Assembly: GCA_947594845.1 (NCBI GenBank)
Contig: CANQEI010000003.1
Location: 41,010 to 105,009 of the forward strand
Reading direction: 5' to 3'
Source: an uncultured Clostridia bacterium
GTDB lineage: Bacteria > Bacillota > Clostridia > TANB77 > CAG-508
Length of the DNA: 64,000 nt
Under the pieces are notes generated by a model that saw only the letters and a program-made list of their open reading frames with translations, was not told the DNA's origin and ran no database searches. Made by a program: the position numbers and the translations under genes. This document shows, in pieces, positions 4,628 to 39,539 of the stretch; the stretch's first letter is position 1, and the number at the start of each line of letters is the position of its first letter.

Positions 4628-4957
4628 GTTTTCTTTGTTATTATTTTTTTTAATTTTGACATTTTCATTGAAAACGCAGCATAGAAATTGTTAATTTTAT
4701 AAGTAGAGAATCTCACAGGATTGAGGATTCTACGCAATAAAATTACAATCTCAAGCAAATAAAATAAATAAGCAAAAAGTTTTCTTTATTATTATTTTTT
4801 TTAAATTTTGACGTTTGCAGTGAAAACGCAGCATAGAAATTGTTAATTTTATAAGTAGGGAATCTCACAGGATTGAGGGCGCTACGCAATAAAATTTACA
4901 ATTTCTTGCAAGTGAAACAAACAGGCAAAATTTAAAAAAAATAATAATAAAGAAAAC
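4628..4957. repeat. Two tandem copies (period 151 bp) of a palindromic AT-rich element. Copy 2 (4779-4957) is bounded by perfect 32-bp terminal inverted repeats.
   Basis: Direct repeat GTTTTCTTT(G/A)TTATTATTTTTTTT..TTTTGAC...GAAAACGCAGCATAGAAATTGTTAATTTTATAAGTAG.GAATCTCACAGGATTGAGG... starts at 4628 and 4779. GTTTTCTTTATTATTATTTTTTTTAAATTTTG (4779-4810) is the exact reverse complement of 4926-4957. The inner arms GCATAGAAATTGTTAATTTTAT and ATAAAATTTACAATTTCTTGC are also complementary. Confidence 0.85.
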
Positions 4958-4994
4958 TATATATTAATAATATTATTGTTTTGAAAGGAATTTT

Positions 4995-5849
4995 ATGCAA
5001 AAATTAATTGTAGAACCAAAATATAATAATAAAAAATTAAGTACATTTCTATATGACCACTTTAATGGTTTAACATCAGCAACATTTTACAAAGCATTAA
5101 GAAAAAAAGACATTAGAATAAACAATGTGCGAATAAATGAAGACCAAATTATTCATGAATTTGATTTAATAACAATTTATATTTTAGATGACTTCTTATA
5201 TAAAAACTTAAATTTAGAAAAAGTATATGAAGACGAAAATATATTAATAATAAACAAACCTGTTGAATTAGAAGTTGTTTCTGAATCTAAAGAAGAAACA
5301 GCTACTTCACTACTTCAAAAACAATATTCATACATACAGCCATGCCATAGACTAGACAGAAATACTACAGGTCTTGTAATGTTCGCTAAAAATGAAGAAT
5401 CACTAAAAATATTATTAGAAAAATTTAAAAATAAAGAAATAAAGAAAAACTATATTTGTACAGTATTAGGAAAAATGCCAAAAAAAGAAGACCTTTTAAA
5501 AGCCTACTTATTTAAAGACAATAAAAAATCATTAGTATACATTTCAGACACTCCCAAAAAAGGATATCAAGAAATTCTAACAAAATATACTGTTTTATCT
5601 GAAAATACTAAAGAAAACACCTCTAACCTTGACATTGAACTTATAACAGGAAGAACTCATCAAATAAGAGCACACTTAGCACATATTGATCATCCAATCA
5701 TTGGAGACGGAAAATATGGAATTAACGAAATAAACAAAAAATTCAAATGTAAATATCAGAAATTAAAAAATTATAAGATACAATTTGTCTTTGATACTTC
5801 GGCTGGATTTTTAGATTATTTAAATAACAAAACAATTAAAATATCTTAA
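4995..5849 (+). CDS. RluA-family 23S rRNA/tRNA pseudouridine synthase with N-terminal S4-like domain
   Basis: HRLDRNTTGLVMFAKN (catalytic Asp motif) and TGRTHQIRAHLAHIDHPIIGDGKYG. Confidence 0.85.
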   Translation: MQKLIVEPKYNNKKLSTFLYDHFNGLTSATFYKALRKKDIRINNVRINEDQIIHEFDLITIYILDDFLYKNLNLEKVYEDENILIINKPVELEVVSESKEETATSLLQKQYSYIQPCHRLDRNTTGLVMFAKNEESLKILLEKFKNKEIKKNYICTVLGKMPKKEDLLKAYLFKDNKKSLVYISDTPKKGYQEILTKYTVLSENTKENTSNLDIELITGRTHQIRAHLAHIDHPIIGDGKYGINEINKKFKCKYQKLKNYKIQFVFDTSAGFLDYLNNKTIKIS

Positions 5850-5885
5850 AAAAGTCCTTGTTCATCTTTAACAAGGACTTTTTTA
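5850..5885. terminator. Bidirectional rho-independent terminator between convergent genes
   Basis: AAAAGTCCTTGTT-catcttt-AACAAGGACTTTT hairpin flanked by an A-run and a T-run. Confidence 0.75.
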
Positions 5886-5889
5886 TCTA

Positions 5890-6444
5890 TTAATTTCTTT
5901 CAAATATACTTAGTACTTTTGCTACAACAGCAATAATTTTATTACACTGCGTTTTAGCGAAATTTTTTCCTAAAGCTTTTCCACCAACTGTTAGTGATGC
6001 CACTAATGCACTCATAATAAATTGAATATTATAATCTAATCCAAATGAAGCAGTAATTTTTAAAGTTAACATAGCACTAATTGCACCACTAAGTACACCA
6101 CATATATCACCAATTACATCAGCACAAATATTTGAAACTTTAGGTGCTGATCTTATTAATCTTAGTGCAGTTTTAGCACTTTTAACCTTTTTAGAAGCCA
6201 TAGCGTGAAAGTCTTCTTCGGTTGCACACGTTACAGCAACACCAATAATATCAAAAAATACTCCAACTAAAATAACTACAATCAAGACAATTAATGCCGG
6301 TATTACATCTAAAGCATTTATACTTGTTGTTGAAATGTAGGAAAAAGTCATTGAAAGAATAAAAGTTATTATAAATACTATAAAAAACCATTTAATAGCC
6401 TCGCCTTTTGCATTTTTACCTTTTTTCTCTTGTTTATTTTTCAA
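5890..6444 (-). CDS. Small polytopic membrane protein, function unknown
   Basis: TTG start with GAAAGGA RBS. Several hydrophobic helices. No motif I can name securely. Confidence 0.5.
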   Translation of the reverse strand: MKNKQEKKGKNAKGEAIKWFFIVFIITFILSMTFSYISTTSINALDVIPALIVLIVVILVGVFFDIIGVAVTCATEEDFHAMASKKVKSAKTALRLIRSAPKVSNICADVIGDICGVLSGAISAMLTLKITASFGLDYNIQFIMSALVASLTVGGKALGKNFAKTQCNKIIAVVAKVLSIFERN

Positions 6445-9780: not shown

Positions 9781-11541
9781 TTATATTACTTTTTCATCAA
9801 TTTCTTTTTGCACTTTTTGAACAAAGTCTTTTAAAGGCATCTGTCCAATATCTCCTTCTTTTCTCTTTCTTACACCGACTGCTTTTGCTTCTACTTCTTT
9901 ATCTCCAATAATTAACATATAAGGAATTTTTTGAAGTTGTGCTTCTCTTATTTTATAACCTATTTTTTCCTGTCTATCATCTAATTCAACACGAATTCCT
10001 AATTTTTGTAGTTCTTCTTTTACAGAAATTGCATATTCTTTTTGACTATCAGAAATAGGTAAAATTGAAACTTGTACTGGTGAAATCCAAAGTGGAAAAG
10101 CTCCTGCAAAATGTTCTGTTATAATACCAATAAATCTTTCGAAAGAACCAAATAAAGCTCTATGTACAAGTATTGGTGTTTTCTTCTCCCCATTAGAATC
10201 AATATATGAAAGATTAAATCTTAATGGTAATTGGAAGTCAACTTGAACTGTTCCCATTTGCCATTCTCTACCTAAGCAATCCTTCATTTTTATATCAATC
10301 TTCGGACCATAGAATGCTCCATCACCTTCGTTAATTCTATAATTATCTTTACCACACAATTCGTCTAAAACTTCTTTTAAGTTTGCTTCTGCTTTATTCC
10401 ATAATTCTATGTCTCCCATAAAATCTTCTGGTCTTGTAGATAAAGTTAATTCAAAATCTAATCCAAAAATTCCATACAAATATTTAGCAATTTCAATTAT
10501 ATCTTTAATTTCATTTCCAATTTGATCTTCTGCAATAAAGTTATGAGCATCGTCTTGTCTAAACATTCTAACTCTAAATAATCCGTTTAACTGACCTGAT
10601 TTTTCATTTCTATGAATAACATCAATATCATTAAAACGCATTGGTAAATCTTTATAGCTTCTTAATTTTGAAGCAAATATTTTAATTGCATTTGGACAGT
10701 TCATTGGTTTTAAAGCTTGTTCTTTTCCATCTGAATCTGTTAATACAAACATATCTTCTTTATAATGATCCCAGTGACCAGAAATTTTCCATAACTCGCT
10801 ACTGTTTAGTTGAGGTCCTGAAAATTCCATATATCCTCTTTTTTCATGTTCTTTTCTCCAAAAGTCAATTAAAACATTCATCATTTTAAATCCTTTTGGT
10901 AACCAATAAGCCATACCTGGTGCTGTTTCATCAAAGAAAAATAAGTCTAATTCTTTTCCTAATTTCCTATGATCTCTCTTTTTTGCTTCTTCAAGCATAT
11001 TTAAATATTCTTCAAGTTCACTAGCTTTAGGGAAAGATATTCCATAAATTCTTTGAAGCATTTTATTATGCTCATCACCTCTCCAATAAGCACCTGATGA
11101 AGATAACAATTTAACAGCTTTAACACAACCTGTAGATGGCAAATGTGGTCCTCTACATAAGTCTGTGAAATCGCCTTGTTTATAAAAAGATATAACTTCT
11201 CCTTCTGGTAAATCTTTTATCAATTCTACTTTATAAGGCTCTTTTCTTTCTTCCATAAATTTAATAGCTTCATCTCTAGGAAGTTCAAATCTTTCAAGAG
11301 CAAAATCCTCTTTAATGATTTTTTTCATTTCTTCTTCAATTTTAGCCAAATCTTCTTCTGTAAATGGATTCTCAACATCAAAATCATAATAAAATCCATT
11401 TTCAATAGATGGTCCTATAGCTAATTTAGCATTAGGAAACAATCTTTTTACAGCCTGAGCCATAATATGAGACGTCGTATGCCAATACATAGACTCTTCT
11501 ACTTCTTGCGTTTTTCCTCCGCCGAGTTTAATCTTAAACAT
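9781..11541 (-). CDS. thrS: Threonine--tRNA ligase, short form lacking most of the N-terminal TGS domain
   Basis: HTTSHIMAQAVKRLFP...GPSIENGFYYDFD, RDHRKLGKELDLF, class II core and C-terminal anticodon-binding domain. GGGAGG RBS at the 11541 start. A Thr T-box lies upstream. Confidence 0.9.
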   Translation of the reverse strand: MFKIKLGGGKTQEVEESMYWHTTSHIMAQAVKRLFPNAKLAIGPSIENGFYYDFDVENPFTEEDLAKIEEEMKKIIKEDFALERFELPRDEAIKFMEERKEPYKVELIKDLPEGEVISFYKQGDFTDLCRGPHLPSTGCVKAVKLLSSSGAYWRGDEHNKMLQRIYGISFPKASELEEYLNMLEEAKKRDHRKLGKELDLFFFDETAPGMAYWLPKGFKMMNVLIDFWRKEHEKRGYMEFSGPQLNSSELWKISGHWDHYKEDMFVLTDSDGKEQALKPMNCPNAIKIFASKLRSYKDLPMRFNDIDVIHRNEKSGQLNGLFRVRMFRQDDAHNFIAEDQIGNEIKDIIEIAKYLYGIFGLDFELTLSTRPEDFMGDIELWNKAEANLKEVLDELCGKDNYRINEGDGAFYGPKIDIKMKDCLGREWQMGTVQVDFQLPLRFNLSYIDSNGEKKTPILVHRALFGSFERFIGIITEHFAGAFPLWISPVQVSILPISDSQKEYAISVKEELQKLGIRVELDDRQEKIGYKIREAQLQKIPYMLIIGDKEVEAKAVGVRKRKEGDIGQMPLKDFVQKVQKEIDEKVI

Positions 11542-11654
11542 AAGTACCTCCCTTATTCAAAAGCTTACTTTTGAATATTTTATTGGTTTAAATCCATAAC
11601 TTATAAGTTTTTTGTTATTATTTAAAATTTTAAGTTTGCCATGCATTCTCTTTT

Positions 11655-14493: not shown

Positions 14494-15795
14494 TTAATAT
14501 CCTGGTTTTTCTAGCAATTTAAACATATTCTTTTTGTATTCTTCAACACCTGGTTGATTAAATGGATTTACATCTAAAATCATACCAGACATAGCACATG
14601 CCTTTTCAAAGAAGTAAATTAAGTGTCCAATATTTTCTTCATCTAAAGTATCAATTTTAATCATAATGTTTGGAACATTTCCGCTAACATGTGCTTGTAT
14701 TGTTCCTTCCATAGCTTTTTTATTTACGTAATCTAATGTTTTTCCAACAAGATAATTTAATCCATCAACATTCTCATCATCTTCTGTTATATCAATATCG
14801 CTTTTTGGTGTTTCAACACATAAAACAGTTTCAAATAAATGTCTTTCTCCGTCTTGTATATATTGTCCCATTGAATGCAAATCTGTAGTTAAATCTACAC
14901 CTGCTGGGAAAATTCCTTTTCCATCTTTTCCTTCACTTTCACCATATAGCTGTTTCCACCATTCTGTAAAATAATGTAATTGTGGTTCATAGTTAGCAAG
15001 AATTTCTATTTTTTTACCAGAATTGTATAATAAATTTCTTATAACAGCATATTTATAGCAATCATTGAATTTTACACTTGGATCTAAATATTTTTCTCTA
15101 GCATCTCTAGCTCCTTGCATCAATTTATCTATATCAATTCCAGCTGTAGCAATTGGTAGTAATCCAACAGCTGTCAAAACTGAAAATCTTCCACCAATAT
15201 TGTCAGGAATCACAAATGTTTCATACTGTTCTGAAGTAGCTAAACCTTTTAAAGCTCCTTTTTCCTTATCTGTAGTAACATATATTCTCTTTTTAGCTTC
15301 TTCTAATCCATATTTTGACTCTATTGCTTCTCTTAAAATTCTAAAAGCAATGGCTGGCTCTGTAGTTGTTCCAGATTTAGAAATAACATTTAAAGAAATA
15401 TCTTTTTCTCCAATTAAATTCATTAAATCATTCAAATAATTAGGACTTAAATTGTTTCCTGCATAAATAATCATTGGTGAATTTCTTTTTTTAGAAGGAA
15501 GCATATTATAAAAGCAATCTGTTAAACTTTCAATAACTGCTCTTGCTCCTAAATATGAGCCCCCAATTCCTATAACAATTAAAACATCTGAATCTGAACG
15601 TATTTTTTTAGCAGCCTTTTTTATTCTTTCAAATTCCTCTCTATCATATTTTTCTGGAAGATTAATCCAACCTAAAAATTTATTTTCGTCATCTGGATTT
15701 TCATGCAATAATGCATGATTTTTTTGAACGAATTCTTCATATTCACTAATCATTCGTTCATTTATACTTGAATTTTCAAAATCAAATTTAACCAT
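14494..15795 (-). CDS. pgi: Glucose-6-phosphate isomerase (short Firmicute type)
   Basis: [37 protein letters not shown] and QLYGESEGK motifs. Confidence 0.9.
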
Positions 15796-15869
15796 AAGTT
15801 TCCTCCTTAGTTTTTATTAATATGATTATATTTATAATAATATATTTGTTCAAGTATAATTTTCAAAAT

Positions 15870-16952
15870 TTATATCTGTGAAATAACTTGTGCCAAATAT
15901 TTCATACTTACTAAACATTCTTCCAAAGTATTTCCAGTTGCTCCGACTTCTATAATACAAGCCCCTTTTGTAACATGCTGATTATATCTATACTTCCTAA
16001 ATATAATTGGCTTAAATAATCCTGGATACATTTCATTAGCTTTTTCTTGAATTTTTATAGCAATTTTTAAGTTATCATTCCAGTTAGGATGAGTAAGTCC
16101 TCCCTCATTACTTCCTATAACAAACATTAATTGAGCTGCCTTTTCTTCACCTATCATAACACTAGGTCCATATGTACTATCTCCTAAAGCATCTCTATGT
16201 AAATCAATCACTATGTCTGCACTCGTAGTCTTTAGTAAATTTTGTGCTGTCCTTAAGGATCTATCATATGAACCATTATATTCAGGATAATCATGAAAAG
16301 TAGCATCATGAATCACATTAATACTTTGCTTTTCTAATTCTTTTTTTAATTCTTCACCCACTCTAACTACACTATGTTCTGTGTCTAAAGTTCTAAAATT
16401 TCCACTAGCTTGATATTGATTTGCTTCTGTGGGAGTATAGCTTTCGCTTGTATGCGTATGATAGATAATAATATTACTCTTGTCAAATTCAATATTTGGA
16501 GTCATCATTTCTTCAGTCAATTGAAAACTTGTTTGATTTCTAATTTTAACACTCGAATATGTTACATCAAAAATATCTTTTTTATTGTGTTCTGCAACTA
16601 CTTCTGTAGTAGGAAATTCTTGAAGATTATTATCTTCTTCAATTTCTTGTTGCTCAATATTTTGTTCATCTGAAAATACGCTATCAACATGAAAAGCATT
16701 TTGTATAAAACCAATTTCACTTGATAAAGCATTTTCATTTTTTTGTTCAATAACAGGCTCATCAAAATTTTCATCAATCATTTCTATAAATGTTTTATTT
16801 TCAAAAGAATTTAATCTATTTTCTATAATTTTCTTTAAATCTATTTTTTTAATCTCACTAAAAAATCTAGTAAGAAGTACAATACTAATTATGAGTATCA
16901 TTACTTTTACTAGATTTTTTCCTACATCACTTAATCTAAAAACTCTTATCAT
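15870..16952 (-). CDS. spoIIP: Stage II sporulation protein P
   Basis: N-terminal TM, IIIYHTHTSESY motif, DLHRDA, typical SpoIIP amidase-like domain. Confidence 0.8.
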   Translation of the reverse strand: MIRVFRLSDVGKNLVKVMILIISIVLLTRFFSEIKKIDLKKIIENRLNSFENKTFIEMIDENFDEPVIEQKNENALSSEIGFIQNAFHVDSVFSDEQNIEQQEIEEDNNLQEFPTTEVVAEHNKKDIFDVTYSSVKIRNQTSFQLTEEMMTPNIEFDKSNIIIYHTHTSESYTPTEANQYQASGNFRTLDTEHSVVRVGEELKKELEKQSINVIHDATFHDYPEYNGSYDRSLRTAQNLLKTTSADIVIDLHRDALGDSTYGPSVMIGEEKAAQLMFVIGSNEGGLTHPNWNDNLKIAIKIQEKANEMYPGLFKPIIFRKYRYNQHVTKGACIIEVGATGNTLEECLVSMKYLAQVISQI

Positions 16953-17018
16953 ACTACAACCTCATATATCTTTATAACTAATATATGTATGGTTACTATT
17001 TTTATGATAAAAATTCTT

Positions 17019-18269
17019 TTATTGGCCTAGTTTTTCCTTTATATTTTCACAATTTAATAATATTTCGCTTTCTTCACCAGTTTCCATATTCTTTATCATT
17101 GCTTTTCCGCTTCTTACTTCATCATCTCCAATAGTAATAACAAACTTAGCTCCTTGTTTGTCAGCATACTTAAATTGTGCTTTTATTCCCCTTTGGCATA
17201 TATCTTTTTCTACAAAAATTCCCTCTTCACGTAATTCTTTAACTAATTTTGTTGCATATAAATTAGATTCATCCCCAATATTAGCAACATAAAGATCCAT
17301 TTTTCTTTCTTGGGCAACATCAGGATTATATTTATCAAACAATTCTAAAAGTCTTTCCATTCCCATAGCAAATCCAACAGCTGGTGTATCTTGTCCACCA
17401 ACTTCTTTAACTAATCCATCATATCTACCTCCGCCTAAAACTGTTAAGCCATCATCTTCAGAAATAAATTCAAATACAGTTTTAGTATAATAGTCTAGTC
17501 CTCTTACAATTGTAGAATCAATTTCATAATTTATTCCTAACTCTTTTAATAACTTTTGAACATTTTCAAAGTGTTCTTTACATTCATCACATAAATAGTC
17601 TAATATAGTTGGTGCATTTTGATTCATTTCTTTACACTTTTTTTCTTTACAATCAAGAATTCTCATTGGATTTTTGTCAAATCTTGTTTTACATGTATCG
17701 CAATATTTTTCTAAGTTTGGTCTTATAAAATCTCTTAAAGCTTCTTGATATTTTGCTCTACATTCAGGGCAACCTATACTATTTATATTTAATTTAATAT
17801 TAGGTATACCTAATGCTTTAAAAATCTGTACACCTAAATCAATAACTTCTACATCTGCTAAATAGCTTTGTGTACCTATTACTTCTGTTCCAATTTGTCT
17901 AAATTCTCTTAATCTACCTTTTTGTACATTTTCATATCTGTACATTGCCATTTCATACCACAACTTTAGTGGAGTAGCTAAACTTGCCATTCCATTCTCT
18001 ATATAGCTTCTAACTACACCAGCTGTTCCCTCTGGTCTTAATGTAATACTTCTTCCTCCCTTGTCTTCAAAAGTATACATTTCTTTTTGAACAACATCTG
18101 TAGTTTCTCCTACACCTCTTGAAAATAACTCAGTATTTTCAAAAACTGGTACTCTTATTTCTTTCATACCTGCATTTTCCATTACAGTTTTTATTTTATT
18201 TTCAATATATTGCCATCTATAAATTTCTGAAGGCAATATATCTTTCGTTCCTTTTGGTTTTTGTATCAT
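17019..18269 (-). CDS. hisS: Histidine--tRNA ligase
   Basis: PKGTKDILP, RLWYxxxMYRYENVQKGRLREFxQ, GGGRYD. Start moved to the ATG at 18269 (GGAGGA RBS) just after the upstream stop. Confidence 0.9.
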   Translation of the reverse strand: MIQKPKGTKDILPSEIYRWQYIENKIKTVMENAGMKEIRVPVFENTELFSRGVGETTDVVQKEMYTFEDKGGRSITLRPEGTAGVVRSYIENGMASLATPLKLWYEMAMYRYENVQKGRLREFRQIGTEVIGTQSYLADVEVIDLGVQIFKALGIPNIKLNINSIGCPECRAKYQEALRDFIRPNLEKYCDTCKTRFDKNPMRILDCKEKKCKEMNQNAPTILDYLCDECKEHFENVQKLLKELGINYEIDSTIVRGLDYYTKTVFEFISEDDGLTVLGGGRYDGLVKEVGGQDTPAVGFAMGMERLLELFDKYNPDVAQERKMDLYVANIGDESNLYATKLVKELREEGIFVEKDICQRGIKAQFKYADKQGAKFVITIGDDEVRSGKAMIKNMETGEESEILLNCENIKEKLGQ

Positions 18270-18289
18270 ATTTTTTCCTCCAATTTTAT

Positions 18290-19162
18290 TTAAATCCAAT
18301 TTTTTATTGTATTTATATTAATTTCTTCTTTTTTAGGAAATTGTCCTAAAAACACATCTTTCTTATTTTCGCCATGATAATCACTTCCTGCACTCATAAA
18401 ATATCCTTTTTTACTACATATATTTTTAAGATATTCAACTTGTTCTTCTGTAAAACTGCTATGAGAACATTCAATTCCATCTATATCATAATTATCAAGC
18501 AAATCATTTATAAATTCTTCTTTGTCTTTAGCCCAATCATATAAAAATAAATGTGGTAAAAATACTAATCCTCCACAGTCTTTAATCATTTGAATTGTTT
18601 GCTCTAGTGAAGGGTAATCTCCTTTTTTATCAATATAAAAAGCAGAATTTTTATCTACGCAATATTTTTTTGTAAAAGTCTTAAAATCATTCCATAAATC
18701 TTGTGGAAGTAACTCTTTATTTTCTTCATGACTTTTTATTTCATCATAAATGGCTAAACTTCCCCATATTGAATGCCATTTAATTTCTTCTTTTTCTCTA
18801 ACCTTTAAGTTTAACTTTTTACAAGCATTATACAAAATATCAAAATATTTTTGCTCTATCATCTCTTTTGTTCTTTCCTTATAAAAAGCATTCATTTTTT
18901 CTTGCATTTTATTTATATCAATTTTATATCCTAAAACATCTAGGCTTCTTTCTTTATACATTGATTTTATTTCTATGCCATAAATTATTTTTCCGCTATA
19001 AAATTTAGAAACATCAATATTTTTCAATTCTTCATAAGCTTTACAAGTATCGTGATCTGTAATTGAAATGCACTCTAGTTTCAATTCTTCAGCCTTTTGT
19101 AAAATTTCTTTTGCACTATTAGTTCCATCTGAATATTGAGTATGTATATGCAAATCTATCAT
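18290..19162 (-). CDS. PHP-domain metal-dependent phosphoesterase
   Basis: MIDLHIHTQYSDG start and ITDHDT motif. Confidence 0.7.
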   Translation of the reverse strand: MIDLHIHTQYSDGTNSAKEILQKAEELKLECISITDHDTCKAYEELKNIDVSKFYSGKIIYGIEIKSMYKERSLDVLGYKIDINKMQEKMNAFYKERTKEMIEQKYFDILYNACKKLNLKVREKEEIKWHSIWGSLAIYDEIKSHEENKELLPQDLWNDFKTFTKKYCVDKNSAFYIDKKGDYPSLEQTIQMIKDCGGLVFLPHLFLYDWAKDKEEFINDLLDNYDIDGIECSHSSFTEEQVEYLKNICSKKGYFMSAGSDYHGENKKDVFLGQFPKKEEININTIKNWI

Positions 19163-25813: not shown

Positions 25814-26152
25814 ATGTTTAGAAATTGCAGTTGTTCTTGTAACAATAATCAGCAAAATGATACTAACAACATGTATGAAGAATCTTGCGATATAAATACA
25901 ACTTATGATGATATGGATATGAATTCTTGTTCATGTGGATTTGACGAATATTCCGCTTTTCCTCAAAATTGGATGTATGGTCATTCATATGTACCTCGTC
26001 AAAGATTAAATAAAGTATATACTCCCGAAATTGGCTTAAAAATGGGAACTATATTTCCTGAATTAGTTAGTCCTTACTGTCCAAATCAATCATTAGAAGT
26101 AAATATGTATTTAAAAAATTCAAATACTATTGGGGAGGGCTGTAATTCATAA
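25814..26152 (+). CDS. cotJA: Spore coat-associated protein CotJA
   Basis: YVPRQRLNKVYTPEIGLKMGTIFPELVSPY, which is the CotJA signature. AAAGGAGG RBS. Confidence 0.8.
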   Translation: MFRNCSCSCNNNQQNDTNNMYEESCDINTTYDDMDMNSCSCGFDEYSAFPQNWMYGHSYVPRQRLNKVYTPEIGLKMGTIFPELVSPYCPNQSLEVNMYLKNSNTIGEGCNS

Positions 26153-26421
26153 TGGAAGAATATTGTAACAATCATACAAGAGGCGAATTATTAGATGAAA
26201 TTCGTGCTACAAATTTTAGCTTAATAGAACTTGGATTATATTTAGATATTAATCCAAATGACAAAAGAGCACTTTGTTTATGTAATGAATGTGCTAAGAA
26301 ATTAAAAATGTTAACAGATAATTATCAAAAAATTTATGGTCCACTTACTATAGAGTTCCCATGCAATAAATGGCGTTGGCTTGAGGAACCATGGCCTTGG
26401 GAAAAAGGAGGTAGTTTTTAA
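26152..26421 (+). CDS. cotJB: Spore coat protein CotJB
   Basis: LLDEIRATNFSLIELGLYLDINPNDKRAL...PWPWE. Position between cotJA and cotJC, with overlapping stop/start. Confidence 0.8.
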   Translation: MEEYCNNHTRGELLDEIRATNFSLIELGLYLDINPNDKRALCLCNECAKKLKMLTDNYQKIYGPLTIEFPCNKWRWLEEPWPWEKGGSF

Positions 26422-26822
26422 TGTGGTTATATCAAAAAAAATTAGAATATCCTGTTAGAATAAAATGTACCAATCCTCGATTAGCTAAATTTATAATATC
26501 ACAATATGGTGGTCCAGATGGTGAATTAGCTGCATCATTAAGATATCTTTCACAAAGATTTGGCATGCCAGATCAAAAGTCTAAAGCAATTCTAAATGAT
26601 ATTGGTACTGAGGAGTTAGCCCACTTAGAAATGGTTGGAAGCATTGTTCATCAATTAACTGATGGTGTTCCTGTAGAAGAATTAGAAAAGGCTGGTTTAG
26701 GAGCATATTATACTGATCATGGAGTTGATGTCTATCCTTCTTCTGCAGCTGGAGTTCCTTTCACAGCCGCATATATGGCTGTGAACTTTAGGATAAAAAA
26801 AAGCAATGTCAATTATCTTTAA
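26421..26822 (+). CDS. cotJC: cotJC 5' segment (Mn-catalase-family spore coat protein). Codons 1-118 are genuine and the last ~15 codons are read-through into the inserted element.
   Basis: MWLYQKKLEYPVRIKCTNPRLAKFIISQYGGPDGELAASLRYLSQRF...IGTEELAHLEMVG...AAGVPFTAAY then diverges (MAVNFRIKKSNVNYL*). Confidence 0.85.
   Translation: MWLYQKKLEYPVRIKCTNPRLAKFIISQYGGPDGELAASLRYLSQRFGMPDQKSKAILNDIGTEELAHLEMVGSIVHQLTDGVPVEELEKAGLGAYYTDHGVDVYPSSAAGVPFTAAYMAVNFRIKKSNVNYL
26757..26792. other. Left junction (attL-like) of the cotJC intervening element
   Basis: CCTTTCACAGCC GCATATAT GGCTGTGAACTTTAGG. It shares TTCACAGCC..ATATAT with the right junction. Confidence 0.7.
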
Positions 26823-26843
26823 TTAACATTGCTCTTCTGTCTC
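26795..26843 (-). terminator. Terminator of the cargo operon, just inside the element's left end
   Basis: Minus strand reads AGCAATGT-16 nt-ACATTGCT followed by TTTTTTTT. Confidence 0.65.
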
Positions 26844-26855
26844 AATATGAAAATT

Positions 26856-28334
26856 TTATTCTTCTGTGCTAGATTCAATTAAAGCATCTATCATATTTAC
26901 TATATCTGCTTCATTTATAGTTTCACCAGCTTTTAAATCTTCTTCATCTTCTCCAGAAAATTTAGCCGTTTCTACTATTGGCAATAATTCTTTTAATGTT
27001 TCTCTATCAAAATCATTGTCTTCATTCATTACTTCTATTAACATACAATAGTTTGAATCTAATTTTGTATATACAATTAATTCGTTTGTTCCACCTACAC
27101 TTAATTCAATAGTAATAAATTCTACACCATCTATTGTTTCTGCTTTAACATCTGAAACTTTTCCACCAACATTTTTAAAAGTTTCTTCTAATTCACTCTT
27201 TAGGGATGTTATATTTTTTTTCAAATCTTCATATCTTACTGGTTGTATCATCAAATTAGCCAACCATGTTGAATCTTCATCCTGTAGCTGTATTGTATTA
27301 TTAGTATCATCTATTTTATACTCTAAATTATCTGGTATGTATAGTGTAAATCCTGAAAACTTAACTTCTTGTGAAGATGATGATGGCGTATTTGTTGAAT
27401 TTCCAGTATTGTTATCTTTGCCTTCATCTTCTTCATCTTTATTTTCATTTGATGTAGATGATATTTTTTTATCTTCTTTTGATTCTTTTTCTCCACTATT
27501 ATCTATGAAAGCTGAAAAAATAATTAAGCTTATTACAGCTACAATTATAACAATCAATACGATTATAACACATACCTTTACTACACCATTATTATTTTTT
27601 TTAGGCTGATTGTTATTATTTACACTCTGTTGAGTCTTTTGTTGATTTGCTTGTACATTGTTACTGTTAGATTGTGAATAATTATTTTGTTGTGCATAAT
27701 TACTACTAGGTTGTGAATAATTACTTTGTGATGCATAATTGCTACCAGACTGTGAATAGTTACTTTGTGGCGCATAATTATTAGATTGTGTGTTATTACT
27801 TTGTGGTGCATAATTATTAGATTGTGTATTATTACTTTGTGGTGCATAATTATTGTTTGATTGTGCATAGTTTCCGCTATATTGCATATTATTACTTGGC
27901 TGCGCATATTCATTATTAGATTGTATATTATTGTTTGGTTGTGTATAGCCATTATTAGATTGCGTATTATTGTTTGACTGTGCATAGCCATTATCATATT
28001 GTGTATTATTGTTTGACTGTGCATAGCCATTATCATATTGTGTATTATTGTTTGGCTGTGCATATCCATTATTAGATTGTGTATTATTATTTGGCTGTGC
28101 ATAGTTATTATTAGATTCTATATTACTATTTGGTGGTGCAAACCTACTGTTAGATTGCCCATAATTACTTGTTCCATCATTTCCTTGATTGGAAGTAGAT
28201 GTATTACCATAATTATAAGAACCTCCATTTTGAGAATTTAAATCATTAGTAGTTGATTTTTGCACTAATGTACCACACTTAGGACAAAATATATCATTTT
28301 CTGTTAATGGTTCTCCACATTTACTACAATTCAT
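26856..28334 (-). CDS. Cargo protein D: N-terminal zinc-ribbon, long N/Q/S/Y-rich repeat region, one TM helix, C-terminal extracytoplasmic domain
   Basis: MNCSKCGEPLTENDIFCPKCG (CxxC-n11-CxxC). About 165 aa of YAQ(P/S)NNNTQSNNG-type repeats. TM VVKVCVIIVLIVIIVAVISLIIFSAFI. Start set at ATG 28334 (GAAAGGAG RBS). Confidence 0.7.
   Translation of the reverse strand: MNCSKCGEPLTENDIFCPKCGTLVQKSTTNDLNSQNGGSYNYGNTSTSNQGNDGTSNYGQSNSRFAPPNSNIESNNNYAQPNNNTQSNNGYAQPNNNTQYDNGYAQSNNNTQYDNGYAQSNNNTQSNNGYTQPNNNIQSNNEYAQPSNNMQYSGNYAQSNNNYAPQSNNTQSNNYAPQSNNTQSNNYAPQSNYSQSGSNYASQSNYSQPSSNYAQQNNYSQSNSNNVQANQQKTQQSVNNNNQPKKNNNGVVKVCVIIVLIVIIVAVISLIIFSAFIDNSGEKESKEDKKISSTSNENKDEEDEGKDNNTGNSTNTPSSSSQEVKFSGFTLYIPDNLEYKIDDTNNTIQLQDEDSTWLANLMIQPVRYEDLKKNITSLKSELEETFKNVGGKVSDVKAETIDGVEFITIELSVGGTNELIVYTKLDSNYCMLIEVMNEDNDFDRETLKELLPIVETAKFSGEDEEDLKAGETINEADIVNMIDALIESSTEE
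27610..28110 (-). repeat. In-frame degenerate tandem repeats (about 36-39 nt units) encoding the N/Q/Y-rich low-complexity region
   Basis: Reiterated ...AATAATAATACACAATCTAATAATGGATATGCACAGCC...-like units visible in the DNA. Protein repeats NNNTQ(S/Y)(N/D)NGYAQ(P/S). Confidence 0.8.
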
Positions 28335-28356
28335 CCTTTGTCTCCTTTCTACATTA

Positions 28357-36698: not shown

Positions 36699-38796
36699 AT
36701 TGTTTCCTTCTTTCTTGTGCTAATTTATAAATAGTATCTTGTATATTTAAGTAATTATCAATATCATATTTACTCAACCTATTTTTTGAGCTATCTTTTA
36801 TATTAGTTATATAATTTTCATTTTCTGAAATTATCATATCAGAAACTTTCAAACACCAATATTCGTTTTGAGAAGTTTCAAGTATTTGTTTTAAAACTTC
36901 ATTTTTTTCAATATTATAAAGAGAATAAACTCTTATTTTTCTCTCTTGTAATTTTTCATATATAAATTGCATATTTTCATCATTTATTTTTGAATAATCA
37001 AGTTCTTTAAATTTGAAATAAAAATCTTCTGTTTCTTCATATTCTTCATATTCCCTAATTAAGTCAACAATTTTATTTTCATTACCTACAGTATTTAATT
37101 CATCTATTGTTTCAAGTAAACTTGTATTTCTCTTCTCTACATTAGTTTGTTTTATTCCCATCGCTACGCCAAAAATGTTAACTAAAATAATTACAACAAA
37201 TATAATATTTTCCATATTATTATTTTTTTCTGCGTTTTTAGTCTTTTTCCTTCCAATGTTATCATATTTTGAATTTAATATCGATAATAAAGCTATCCAT
37301 AATACATTTATGCAATAGAAAGACATATCAAAATCTATAAAACTGTGTAACGTAAGCAATATAAAAGCAACATCCATTAAATCAATTTTTTTAATGTTTT
37401 TATATTGTTTCACAGCCAAAATTACTAAAATACTTATCAAAGAAATAAATCCAATAATTCCAGTTTCAATAAAAGTTTCAGTTAAAAAACTATGAGATTC
37501 TAATGTTGCATAATTATAAGATTGTATATCTCTATACTCATAATACCAGCCATTTCCTCCAGCACCTATTAAGAAATGATTCATTGCTATTTTAAATCCA
37601 TCTGTAATAAAAGCAACTCTCTCTATTACACTAGTATCATCTATTCTAAAATCTCTTATTGTTTCTATGAATCTGAATGGTAGAAATTTATATGCCAAAG
37701 CATATTTTTTTCCATTGACAGTAGCAGAATTTATACGAAGTTTACTTTTTACTTTAGTATTTGAATTTTTAACAGTTATTTCAATTTTTGCAGTATCTTC
37801 ATCTGTTACAAACTTTATTTCTTTTTTTCCACTCTCGTTTTTTAAATTCAATTCATGTGAATATGTTATATCTTCATATTTATTTCTTTCTTTTATATTT
37901 ATCTTATAAGCTATTGCATTTTCATCTTCTGATTCAGATGTTAGATCAAAAGCAAAAGTATATTCTTTATTTTTTTCAACATTATAAATTGTTGCAGTTA
38001 CTGAATCTTTTGTATTATTCGTCATTTCCAATGGCTTTTTAAAGTTTACCGCAACTACAATAAACAACACAATGAAACCTAACGCTATTCCTACTTTTGC
38101 TAAATGCTTTCTCATTTTCTTTATGAAAATTATATATATAAACATAACTGCTAATAATAACATTATTGCAAATCTAGAAAAAGCTGATATAAAACATATT
38201 CCAAAAAGAACTATTAGTATTGAATATATAATTTTATTTTCTTTAAATCTATTAATGCATAATAATAAGTCTACAATCATTATTATAGCAAAAGCATTTG
38301 GATATCCTAATGCAGAAACCATTCTTCCACTTACATTATCCATTTTCTGAGCTTTAATTATCTCTAAAAATTGATAAAAGAATGGACTTTCAAATTTTTC
38401 AAGTAATCCTAGAATAGCTAATATGATTCCGCCAACAATTAACGCACTTATAAGATCAGCTGAATTGTCACTATTTTTACCTATTGTTTCTTTTACAATA
38501 AAAAAGACATTAAAAAGAGAAAAATTTCTAACTAATAAAATTAAAGTATCTTCCAAACTATAATAAGTTTTAAAAATAACAGGTAAAGTTGGAACTATAC
38601 AAAATAGTAACACGAGTAAATCTGTTTTAGTAATTGTAAATTTCTCTTTTTTAAAGAAAAGTTTATATCCAGCCAAAATAATTCCTATTAAAATTATAGC
38701 TATATTTAATCCAATGCAATTATATTTAACAGGTAAGCCTACTAATATAAATGAGAAAATTAATATAATTGTAGATATTAAAGTTAAAACATTCAT
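36682..38796 (-). CDS. O-antigen ligase/polymerase-like (Wzy_C-type) polytopic membrane protein with extra soluble domains
   Basis: Many TM helices, SAFSRFAIMLLLAV-type loop region, large extracytoplasmic insert and a C-terminal soluble region. Confidence 0.55.
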   Translation of the reverse strand: MNVLTLISTIILIFSFILVGLPVKYNCIGLNIAIILIGIILAGYKLFFKKEKFTITKTDLLVLLFCIVPTLPVIFKTYYSLEDTLILLVRNFSLFNVFFIVKETIGKNSDNSADLISALIVGGIILAILGLLEKFESPFFYQFLEIIKAQKMDNVSGRMVSALGYPNAFAIIMIVDLLLCINRFKENKIIYSILIVLFGICFISAFSRFAIMLLLAVMFIYIIFIKKMRKHLAKVGIALGFIVLFIVVAVNFKKPLEMTNNTKDSVTATIYNVEKNKEYTFAFDLTSESEDENAIAYKINIKERNKYEDITYSHELNLKNESGKKEIKFVTDEDTAKIEITVKNSNTKVKSKLRINSATVNGKKYALAYKFLPFRFIETIRDFRIDDTSVIERVAFITDGFKIAMNHFLIGAGGNGWYYEYRDIQSYNYATLESHSFLTETFIETGIIGFISLISILVILAVKQYKNIKKIDLMDVAFILLTLHSFIDFDMSFYCINVLWIALLSILNSKYDNIGRKKTKNAEKNNNMENIIFVVIILVNIFGVAMGIKQTNVEKRNTSLLETIDELNTVGNENKIVDLIREYEEYEETEDFYFKFKELDYSKINDENMQFIYEKLQERKIRVYSLYNIEKNEVLKQILETSQNEYWCLKVSDMIISENENYITNIKDSSKNRLSKYDIDNYLNIQDTIYKLAQERRKQFVGEQ

Positions 38797-38807
38797 GAAC
38801 TACTCCC

Positions 38808-39539
38808 TTATCTTTTGCTATTAAAATAATTTTGATATTTTTCTTTCTGTGAAATGATTTCATCTCTTTTTGAATTTGATATATAATTATATTTTACCAT
38901 CTTATCTAATACTTGCTCTTGCCTTTGTGATGCCAATTCAAAATTAACAGTTGGAGCATAAACAGATGGAGCATTTGGAACTCCAGCTAACATTGTAGCT
39001 TCATAATCATTTAATTCGCTTGGATTTTTATCAAAATATCCTTTACTGGCAGAACCAATATCATAATATCCATTTCCAAAATAACTAGTATTAGCATATA
39101 ATTCAAGTATCATTGATTTATCAAGTTCTTTTTCGTATTTACAAGCCATAAAAATTTCTGCAACTTTTCTATCCATTTTTTTATTTTTAGGAAAATAAGT
39201 ATTTTTAGCTAATTGTTGTGCAATTGTACTTCCACCTTCAACTAGTTCCTTTTGAGATATATTTCTTACAATAGCCCTTCCAATTCCAATTATATCAATA
39301 CCTTTATGAATATAAAATCTATGATCTTCTACAGCTACTACAGCATTTTTATATGTTTCAGATATATCATCTAATTTGGTATAATTTGGCTTCTCTTGAA
39401 TTTCCTTGATTTTACTATCAATACTCTGTTCTTTTATTTTTTTTGAGTACAAATTATATCCGCTTCCCAAAAGTATAGTTACAATCGCTAATACAATTAG
39501 CAATATGATAAATAATATATTTTTTATTAATTTTTTCAT
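38808..39539 (-). CDS. Monofunctional peptidoglycan glycosyltransferase (GT51)
   Basis: AVVAVEDHRFYIHKGIDIIGIGRA, GGSTIAQQLAKN and RKVAEIFMACKYE motifs. N-terminal TM. Confidence 0.85.
   Translation of the reverse strand: MKKLIKNILFIILLIVLAIVTILLGSGYNLYSKKIKEQSIDSKIKEIQEKPNYTKLDDISETYKNAVVAVEDHRFYIHKGIDIIGIGRAIVRNISQKELVEGGSTIAQQLAKNTYFPKNKKMDRKVAEIFMACKYEKELDKSMILELYANTSYFGNGYYDIGSASKGYFDKNPSELNDYEATMLAGVPNAPSVYAPTVNFELASQRQEQVLDKMVKYNYISNSKRDEIISQKEKYQNYFNSKR

Follow-up and report, generated by a model that had tools for sequence, protein, structure and literature searches.

An 8-kb element carrying a large serine recombinase gene splits the sporulation gene cotJC in an uncultured Clostridia bacterium

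Introduction

Sporulation genes that are known to be split by recombinase-borne elements are sigK, spoVFB, spoVR, gerE, spsM and yabG. Here we describe a locus of this kind in an uncultured Clostridia bacterium, on a 64-kb stretch of DNA (64,000 nucleotides of contig CANQEI010000003.1, assembly GCA_947594845.1) that is referred to in its whole length as the window, and in which an 8,080-bp element with a gene for a large serine recombinase (LSR) lies inside cotJC. We propose, with a probability of roughly 0.88, that the two junctions of this insert are the hybrid attachment sites attL and attR of a non-phage element that its LSR placed at codon Tyr118 of cotJC, that elements of this kind would be excised by analogy with described systems, and that the present copy is stuck. 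On this basis cotJC in Clostridia joins the short list of split sporulation genes.

Among the closest described systems, the skin elements in sigK, which are recombined by SpoIVCA in Bacillus subtilis and by CD1231 with CD1234 in Clostridioides difficile, are likewise mobile elements inside a mother-cell sporulation gene. Their attL and attR have inverted arms around a short core, joining of their flanks restores the gene in frame, and in C. difficile an accessory protein that is small and acidic takes part (PMC5025042); this protein, CD1234, has 72 residues and, together with SprB of SPbeta, is described as acidic (PMC5025042). The window element differs from skin in its target, which is the coat-associated manganese-catalase-type gene cotJC and not a sigma factor gene, in its length of 8 kb and its non-phage cargo, and in a recombinase that belongs to a clade of its own (nearest outside proteins at most 38% identical, TndX about 30%). 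It further differs in its palindromic central dinucleotide, in the two orientations found among its relatives, in the frameshift of the present copy, and in that its excision is proposed by analogy. The gin element in gerE of Bacillus cereus ATCC 10987 (GirC and GirX) is likewise not a prophage, uses an LSR with a small accessory factor and has a short consensus core in the middle of an inverted repeat (PMC5595907), but it is 28.6 kb long with three recombinases and a predicted cleavage at an asymmetric AA, whereas the window element has 8 kb, one recombinase and TA.

A skin-like element of Laceyella sacchari FBKL4.010 also lies in cotJC and is represented by about 8.1 kb between fragments 2604060-2604290 and 2612416-2612766, as entered in a supplementary table of Galperin et al. 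(bioRxiv 10.1101/2022.02.25.481979), an entry that gives no att sites, recombinase clade or orientation. By these entries it interrupts the gene after about codon 77 and not at codon 118, and the host belongs to the Bacilli (Thermoactinomycetaceae). In the literature searched this one-line mention was the only one of cotJC as a target, and nothing was found on cotJC elements in Clostridia, on the present recombinase clade or on its att sites. With respect to site anatomy, the integrase of Listeria phage A118 (LI integrase, target comK) likewise has a pseudo-palindromic attP, a shorter attB in which a distal motif lies nearer the centre, and a 2-bp crossover at the dyad centre, with orientation set by the dinucleotide alone (PMC3783163, PMC3556126); there the shift is 5 bp, the native core is the asymmetric GG and a symmetric core is artificial, whereas here the shift is 4 bp and the symmetric core is natural. 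The closest characterised proteins are TnpX (Tn4451) and TndX (Tn5397), which have the same three-domain LSR build, TndX being about 30% identical to the window recombinase over 95% of the length. TnpX and TndX use a GA crossover with a looser target choice, and they move antibiotic-resistance transposons, whereas the clade of the window recombinase is tied to one cotJC codon.

Junctions and Reconstructed Attachment Sites

The element and its two junctions are located as follows.

26773 to 34852, no strand: inserted element of 8,080 bp, absent from the related locus L089 and bounded by attL and attR
26757 to 26792, no strand: attL, made of a B half-site (26757-26772) and a P' half-site (26773-26792), crossover between T26772 and A26773
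34833 to 34868, no strand: attR, made of a P half-site (34833-34852) and a B' half-site (34853-34868), crossover between T34852 and A34853

An earlier note, written from the letters of this DNA, had given left and right junction strings at 26757-26792 and 34833-34868, and both stand there verbatim. Four copies of the 9-mer TTCACAGCC are present in the window (0.15 copies expected; none of 100 shuffled sequences gave four), three of which form arms of the two junctions. If the right end of the element is connected to its left end, a 40-bp attP is rebuilt, CCTAATTTTCACAGCCAAAT followed by ATATGGCTGTGAACTTTAGG (junction string TTCACAGCCAAATATATGGCTGTGAA), in which 17 of 20 positions counted from the centre outward are self-complementary, as against a mean of 5.9 ± 2.1 for 40-mers of the window. 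Window sequences 8,080 bp apart were joined as controls (n = 55,880), and the score of 17/20 was reached by a single one of these chimeras, which was the real attP itself. The predicted chromosomal site attB, CCTTTCACAGCCGCAT followed by ATATTGCATGTAAAGG (32 bp; full string CCTTTCACAGCCGCATATATTGCATGTAAAGG), has its dyad centre at the same TA as attP. Its dyad is weak, with a score of 9/16 that is attained by 2.5% of window 32-mers, and hence the reality of attB has to rest on other evidence, namely an empty site in a related genome.

These reconstructions bear out most of what the earlier note had read from the junctions. The count of 14 inverted-identical positions in its 16-bp attP arms holds, attB is indeed the less symmetric site, and the layout that it took as typical of LSRs (a symmetric attP, a less symmetric attB, hybrid attL and attR, and a short core) is the one seen here. 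The ATATAT that it saw at both junctions is shared as well, but the strictly common core is these 6 bp and not an 8-bp spacer.

That the dyad and the shared core arose by chance in AT-rich DNA, beside an insertion or deletion that has nothing to do with them, might be argued for a window with about 25-30% G+C in which the attB dyad alone is matched by 2.5% of 32-mers. The attP score is, however, unique among the 55,880 control chimeras, TTCACAGCC is enriched more than 25-fold, and 11 further elements are built in the same way, so that we regard chance as having a negligible probability.

Restoration of cotJC and the Empty Site

The split operon comprises the following segments.

25814 to 26152, forward strand: cotJA (Pfam CotJA PF11007, E 1.6e-11)
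26152 to 26421, forward strand: cotJB (Pfam CotJB PF12652, E 2.7e-23)
26421 to 26772, forward strand: 5' segment of cotJC, codons 1-117 and the first base of Tyr118 (Mn_catalase profile positions 1-133)
34853 to 35088, forward strand: 3' segment of cotJC, from the remainder of Tyr118 to the stop codon (Mn_catalase profile positions 133-197)

The last gene of the split cotJA-cotJB-cotJC operon is interrupted within its Tyr118 codon, the crossover falling after the first base (T/AT), and the 5' open reading frame (ORF) of cotJC extends into the element as far as 26822. When the flanks are joined at the common ATATAT they give an in-frame CotJC of 195 residues and of the manganese-catalase type, in which no positions of the Pfam Mn_catalase profile are lost across the join (133 on either side) and whose best database matches are full-length intact proteins with 97% identity over 100% of the length. 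One of these intact matches, P0121, is encoded on a 57-kb contig of the metagenome-assembled genome GCA_947589065.1, which we refer to as locus L089. This locus is syntenic with the window on both sides, its alignment running to 26779 and resuming at 34839, and hence the window holds an 8,080-bp insertion exactly at the predicted place. The empty site in L089 is CCTTTTACAGCTGCATATATTGCATGTAAAGG, which agrees with the predicted attB at 30 of 32 bases, both differences being synonymous, and a second empty site, CCATTCACAGCAGCATATATTGCATGTAAAGG, is present in L091.

The insert thus lies within a coding sequence and its precise removal restores the cotJC frame, as in other sporulation-gene-intervening elements, and its assignment to the known skin- and gin-like elements with LSRs is supported. 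In B. subtilis the cotJ genes are expressed in the mother cell. Downstream, a bidirectional terminator-like hairpin (35106-35135) stands directly 3' of the cotJC stop codon, which fits cotJC as the final gene of the operon.

Relatives at the Same cotJC Codon

The recombinase sequence, with its frameshift repaired, has its best matches in P0001 (59% identity), in P0002 and P0003 (both 55%) and in a large group at 48-51%, after which there is a gap to proteins of at most 38%. DNA context was obtained for eleven other members at 48% identity or more, and in all eleven the recombinase adjoins a cotJC fragment that is cut at identical nucleotides. All 12 distinct elements examined that have an LSR at least 48% identical (the window element, L002, L003/L004, L005, L006, L007/L008, the L009/L183 group, L010, L011, L012, the L173 group and the L193 group) are located at the same nucleotides of Tyr118, compared with none of the 76 loci in which the LSR is at most 36% identical. 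While the recombinase, the att arms and the small acidic ORF that precedes it are conserved across the elements of the clade, the cargo is wholly different from one to another, with DUF2207_C only in L173, RepL/Mob_Pre in L193 and Phage_CRI in L002, and the sizes at the same site are 3.4 kb (L173), about 4.2 kb (L009) and 8.1 kb (window).

Searches with tblastn of annotated phage and plasmid collections gave nothing more than 36% identical to the recombinase, and the clade is thus not linked to a known phage or plasmid. A search of representative genome contigs with the recombinase alignment had a best match of 51%, the window genome and the closest elements lying outside that set, and among the matches listed for metagenome contigs the recombinases were at most 35% identical and none was of the clade.

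Further inserts were seen at some of these loci. In L183 (1900-19300), and likewise in L184, four different inserts, each with a recombinase, divide cotJC into at least five pieces; residues 62-102, 97-122, 114-138 and 136-194 are represented, the N-terminal part being outside the locus, and the recombinases are at 259-1809, 4647-6212 (reverse strand), 10001-11626 and 15690-18784. L005 (7871-12306) has two cotJC inserts, one after about residue 65 and one at residue 118, and cotJC looks like a hot spot for recombinase elements. In L174 (4235-5944), L175 and L179 an extra element with a 532-residue serine recombinase has its end some 110 bp upstream of where cotJC starts. It is absent from L173 (7589-7873), where cotJB abuts cotJC, and is a polymorphic second insertion beside the same operon. 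That it might be a second insert inside cotJC of L174, L175 and L179 was excluded, cotJC residues 1-116 being contiguous there.

Half-Sites and the Point of Exchange

With half-sites written 5' to the centre, the P and P' arms of the clade have 20 nucleotides with the consensus CCT(T/A)A....A.AGCA.CAT, and the B and B' arms have 16 nucleotides with the consensuses CC(T/A)TTTACAGC...AT and CCTTT..TGCAATAT, respectively. An inner (A/T)GC at -8 to -6 is common to all four types of half-site. An outer motif reads CCT(T/A)A and spans -20 to -16 in every P or P' arm, and it reads CC(T/A)TT and spans -16 to -12 in every B or B' arm. This comparison suggests that the distal motif, presumably that of the zinc-ribbon domain, is displaced 4 bp inward in attB relative to attP. 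Such a displacement resembles the model drawn from the structure of the A118-family (LI) integrase, whose zinc-ribbon domain contacts one motif in both sites, in attB at a position 5 bp closer to the centre than in attP (PMC3783163). Those bases of attB that are conserved encode the conserved GVPFT and KGD of CotJC, which explains the availability of the site in many species.

The stretch over which attL and attR are identical differs from element to element, extending from -2 to +4 in the window (ATATAT), from -8 to +1 in L009, from -10 to +2 in L010, from -1 to +2 (3 bp) in both L012 and L173, and from -12 to +2 in L193. The blocks of these six elements intersect at -1/+1 only, which is the dyad centre of attP and attB, and this intersection points to an exchange at the 2-bp central dinucleotide that would leave no target duplication. 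The earlier note had left the crossover dinucleotide to be mapped, and it is now placed at the central TA by comparison between elements, not biochemically.

The same blocks bear on the reading of the insert as a cut-and-paste (DDE) transposon, in which GGCTGTGAA.../...TTCACAGCC would be terminal inverted repeats and ATATAT a 6-bp target-site duplication. The ends of the element are indeed inverted repeats at 14 of 16 positions and are flanked by a 6-bp direct repeat. Yet no fixed-length duplication is seen, the shared block being only 3 bp in L012 and L173 and ending at +1 in L009, and in the window ATATAT is unevenly placed with respect to the repeats (GCC-AA-ATATAT on the right, ATATAT-GGC on the left). 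Moreover, the chromosomal arm resembles the element arm (TTCACAGCC), as is the case for pairs of attB and attP, twelve diverged elements stand at identical cotJC nucleotides, and the element has no transposase, its serine recombinase being its only DNA enzyme. A transposon is hence hardly credible as an explanation, and we retain insertion by the LSR.

Two additional motifs were noticed near the att sites of relatives. Part of the 541-residue subfamily has an extra 40-bp att-like palindrome, for example CCTTATAATTACAGCATCAGTAGTTGCAGTTTTTATAAGG, between the recombinase stop codon and the true attR (L009 6790-6830, L010 6170-6215, L005 7805-7860, L183 11640-11680), which the window element does not have; a terminator, a decoy site and a relic attP are conceivable roles for it. 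Two inverted copies of the motif GAATGGTTGTCTA, of which one is just within the element's left end and the other separates the small ORF from the ribosome-binding site of the recombinase, are present in L173 (8240-8270 and 9960-9985), L009, L010, L193 and L012; this motif is also absent from the window element.

Palindromic Central Dinucleotide and Orientation of Relatives

Of the 12 systems, 11 have TA as their central dinucleotide, the exception being the L173 group with TG. Within ATATAT only AT or TA is possible, both of which are palindromic, and the core therefore cannot set the polarity of insertion. An asymmetric centre, which is typical of characterised LSR systems without being strictly defining, is thus not what is found here. 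When distinct elements are tallied by orientation, ten are forward like that of the window and three are flipped. In L008 a recombinase protein identical to that of L007 is found in a flipped element, in which the upstream half of cotJC adjoins the P arm as its reverse complement; in L012 both junctions of the flipped element are on one 14.6-kb contig and attP is a perfect 40-bp palindrome; and L005 is the third flipped case.

As reported for serine integrases, attP and attB synapse equally in either alignment, so that the central dinucleotide alone sets the orientation, whereas for attL and attR it is the protein itself that imposes a parallel alignment, through the arrangement of P-type and B-type half-sites (PMC3783163). 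A118 sites with a symmetric core gave 52.5% deletion and 47.5% inversion (PMC3556126). A symmetric core predicts insertion either way round, and both orientations are indeed seen. Excision would not have to be impaired, given the parallel alignment of attL with attR (PMC3783163). When we searched the literature for LSR sites whose core is palindromic by nature, we met with engineered cases only, which is not proof of absence. A natural palindromic dinucleotide together with both orientations in the wild is a test of the serine-integrase polarity rule, and it could interest enzyme engineers. In addition, the comparative set provides, without experiment, a crossover at base-pair resolution, a half-site consensus and a minimal natural element (3.4 kb, L173) that is usable in a recombination assay.

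The occurrence of both orientations might instead suggest a DNA-inversion switch, in which the recombinase flips the 8-kb segment and does not excise it; a palindromic TA makes inversion between attL and attR chemically possible, and each of these sites holds an inverted copy of an arm of the other. However, cotJC is split either way, so that flipping would switch nothing obvious, and relatives L089 and L091 have empty sites. The wholly different cargo at the same site (3.4, about 4.2 and 8.1 kb) fits independent insertions, L007 and L008 come from different samples with no case of both orientations observed within one strain, and synapsis of LSR attL with attR is reported to favour the parallel alignment that leads to deletion (PMC3783163). 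We therefore consider a switch improbable and favour insertion, in either direction, of elements that could be excised.

What could go beyond the known kind of element is the palindromic core, together with the occurrence of both orientations and the way in which inserts are stacked in cotJC. Taken together they would describe an LSR clade not described before (about 100 protein clusters at 90% identity, all from uncultured gut Clostridia) that is dedicated to one cotJC codon, with a TA core, no polarity, both orientations persisting and an excision kept faithful only by the parallel alignment that the protein imposes, and cotJC would be a "parking gene" for stacked unrelated elements, each of which would need removal in the mother cell. 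We see the odds on this wider picture as evenly balanced.

The Frameshifted Recombinase and the Small Acidic ORF

The two genes at the right end of the element are as follows.

33061 to 33189, forward strand: small acidic ORF of 42 residues, overlapping the start of the recombinase gene
33182 to 34808, forward strand: large serine recombinase gene, frameshifted, read as ORFs 33182-33985 and 34059-34808

The recombinase gene lies at one end of the element, its stop codon ending at 34808, 24 bp short of attR (34833). Across its two ORFs are the domains Pfam Resolvase (E 1.7e-17), Recombinase (E 2.3e-11) and Zn_ribbon_recom (E 4.6e-11), and the conserved catalytic region YxRLS...ESESIxNQ is retained, with the catalytic S15 in YLRLSKED and with R13, E23-S26 and Q30 invariant in the alignment. 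Matches in the PDB are to the catalytic domains of TnpX (2mhc, E 1e-21) and TP901-1 integrase.

The reading frame is not intact. A single inserted nucleotide, C at 33965 (TAT ATA C GGA), interrupts it, and in tblastn residues 1-261 end at 33964 and residues 262-541 begin at 33966; frame 0 ends in ...SNPVYI and the next frame carries on with GSIVGCKTFKP... Removal of one base brings back the motif NPVYIG..VG.KT.KP, which is invariant in the alignment with intact relatives, and at this point the frame of P0001-P0004 and P0008 runs on unshifted. The identical frameshift is present in six more contigs (L201-L206, from the runs ERR10663694, ERR10663695 and ERR10663696 and from ENA assemblies) that are otherwise 100% identical to the window except in the copy number of the 39-bp repeats of cargo gene 1. 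Its presence in six contigs of several runs indicates a real allele of effectively one clone and not a sequencing error, and the 280 codons past the shift that are still open indicate that the mutation is recent. The window copy is thus probably immobile, leaving cotJC split. The earlier note had taken the layout of the sites to support a functional site-specific system and not a random insertion; the site-specific LSR system is upheld, but this copy, the recombinase of which is frameshifted at 33965 in every contig that covers it, is probably not functional.

It is conceivable that the frameshift is not inactivating, either because the ribosome shifts by +1 at AUA-CGG (a rare codon) or because a related recombinase acts in trans, so that the element still excises. 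The 280 downstream codons are open in DNA of 25% GC, both att sites are intact, and the frameshifted allele is present in several samples. That persistence says little, however, given that the contigs are otherwise 100% identical and represent one clone, and P0001-P0004 and P0008 are unshifted at the motif. Re-pairing from AUA to UAC would be poor and there is no slippery run, and a programmed frameshift was judged unlikely for want of a slippery sequence and with the relatives unshifted. No second recombinase of the clade was found in the 64-kb window. A bypass of the frameshift is therefore unlikely, if less so than the other alternatives, and the reading of a stuck copy is retained; with the recombinase broken, cotJC is probably a permanently split gene in this strain, which is the ordinary practical reading.

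Each recombinase of the clade has a homologous acidic ORF of 37-54 residues upstream of it, which carries the motif (F/Y)G..DLK..IL..I...C, and this ORF was called as a gene in L201-L206. Profile scans, including PADLOC, PHROGs and NCBIfam, gave no family match for it.

Proposed Mechanism and Points Against It

We propose that recombinase dimers would bind the 40-bp attP on a circular form of the element and the 32-bp attB in cotJC, as the anatomy of the sites and the mechanism of LSRs suggest, and that both sites would be cut at the central TA and the half-sites swapped. Since TA is its own reverse complement, the element could enter either way round. In intact relatives the recombinase, probably aided by the product of the small acidic ORF, would recombine attL with attR, so that cotJC is made whole again in the mother cell during sporulation, as is described for skin, SPbeta, vfbin, vrin, gin and yin. 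The present clone most likely has a fixed element and a split cotJC. A split cotJC would be tolerable because cotJC-type catalases are reported, as cited in PMC11222575, not to be required for coat formation in C. difficile.

Several points weigh against this proposal. To our knowledge the characterised LSR sites all have an asymmetric core, which makes a palindromic dinucleotide unusual, and the native sites in the literature that we consulted are likewise asymmetric. A 100% identical copy of the rebuilt CotJC was not found in the protein collection, where the best match has 97% identity, and the exact attP core, as expected of an excised circle or a phage-borne form, gave no matches in viral contigs. 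Most of the relatives come from metagenome assemblies, and the flipped cases L008, L012 and L005 rest on contigs and not on reads. The frameshift is carried not only by the window but by all of L201-L206, and the small acidic ORF is a candidate directionality factor by analogy only. Lastly, no recognisable sporulation-type promoter lies upstream of the small ORF or the recombinase: aligned upstream regions of the small ORF showed no convincing sigma-E or sigma-K promoter, and a sigma-70 scan gave fewer sites than in shuffled sequences.

Cargo Genes and Neighbouring DNA

The remainder of the element is occupied by four genes on the reverse strand.

26856 to 28370, reverse strand: cargo gene 1, zinc ribbon, Q/N-rich repeat and membrane span
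28357 to 29961, reverse strand: cargo gene 2, 534 residues, no family match
29958 to 31682, reverse strand: cargo gene 3, 574 residues, trypsin-like peptidase domain (Pfam Trypsin_2, E 1.1e-6)
31687 to 32898, reverse strand: cargo gene 4, 403 residues, zinc ribbon, membrane span and HELGH motif

Scans with PADLOC, PHROGs and NCBIfam gave no convincing assignment of the cargo, phage-structural or defence, and cargo without such matches makes the element one of a non-prophage kind, like gin (PMC5595907). Matches of the cargo to PD-T4-6 and SAG1386 were discounted as weak and as overlapping the Q/N-rich repeat and membrane regions. In cargo gene 1, 39-bp tandem repeats at 27645-28210 encode a 13-residue repeat rich in Q, N, S and Y, the copy number of which varies between samples, the protein having 504 residues in the window and 479 in L202.

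Outside the element, a 3.7-kb block downstream of cotJC (35090-38823) with glycosyltransferase-like and Wzy_C-like genes is absent from the syntenic L089. Within it, at 37408-37420, is an exact copy of the 13-nucleotide P-arm core TTTCACAGCCAAA without a dyad partner. In a control that allowed one mismatch, two matches to this core occurred in 2 of 100 shuffled sequences, and the copy could either have arisen by chance or be a relic half-site.

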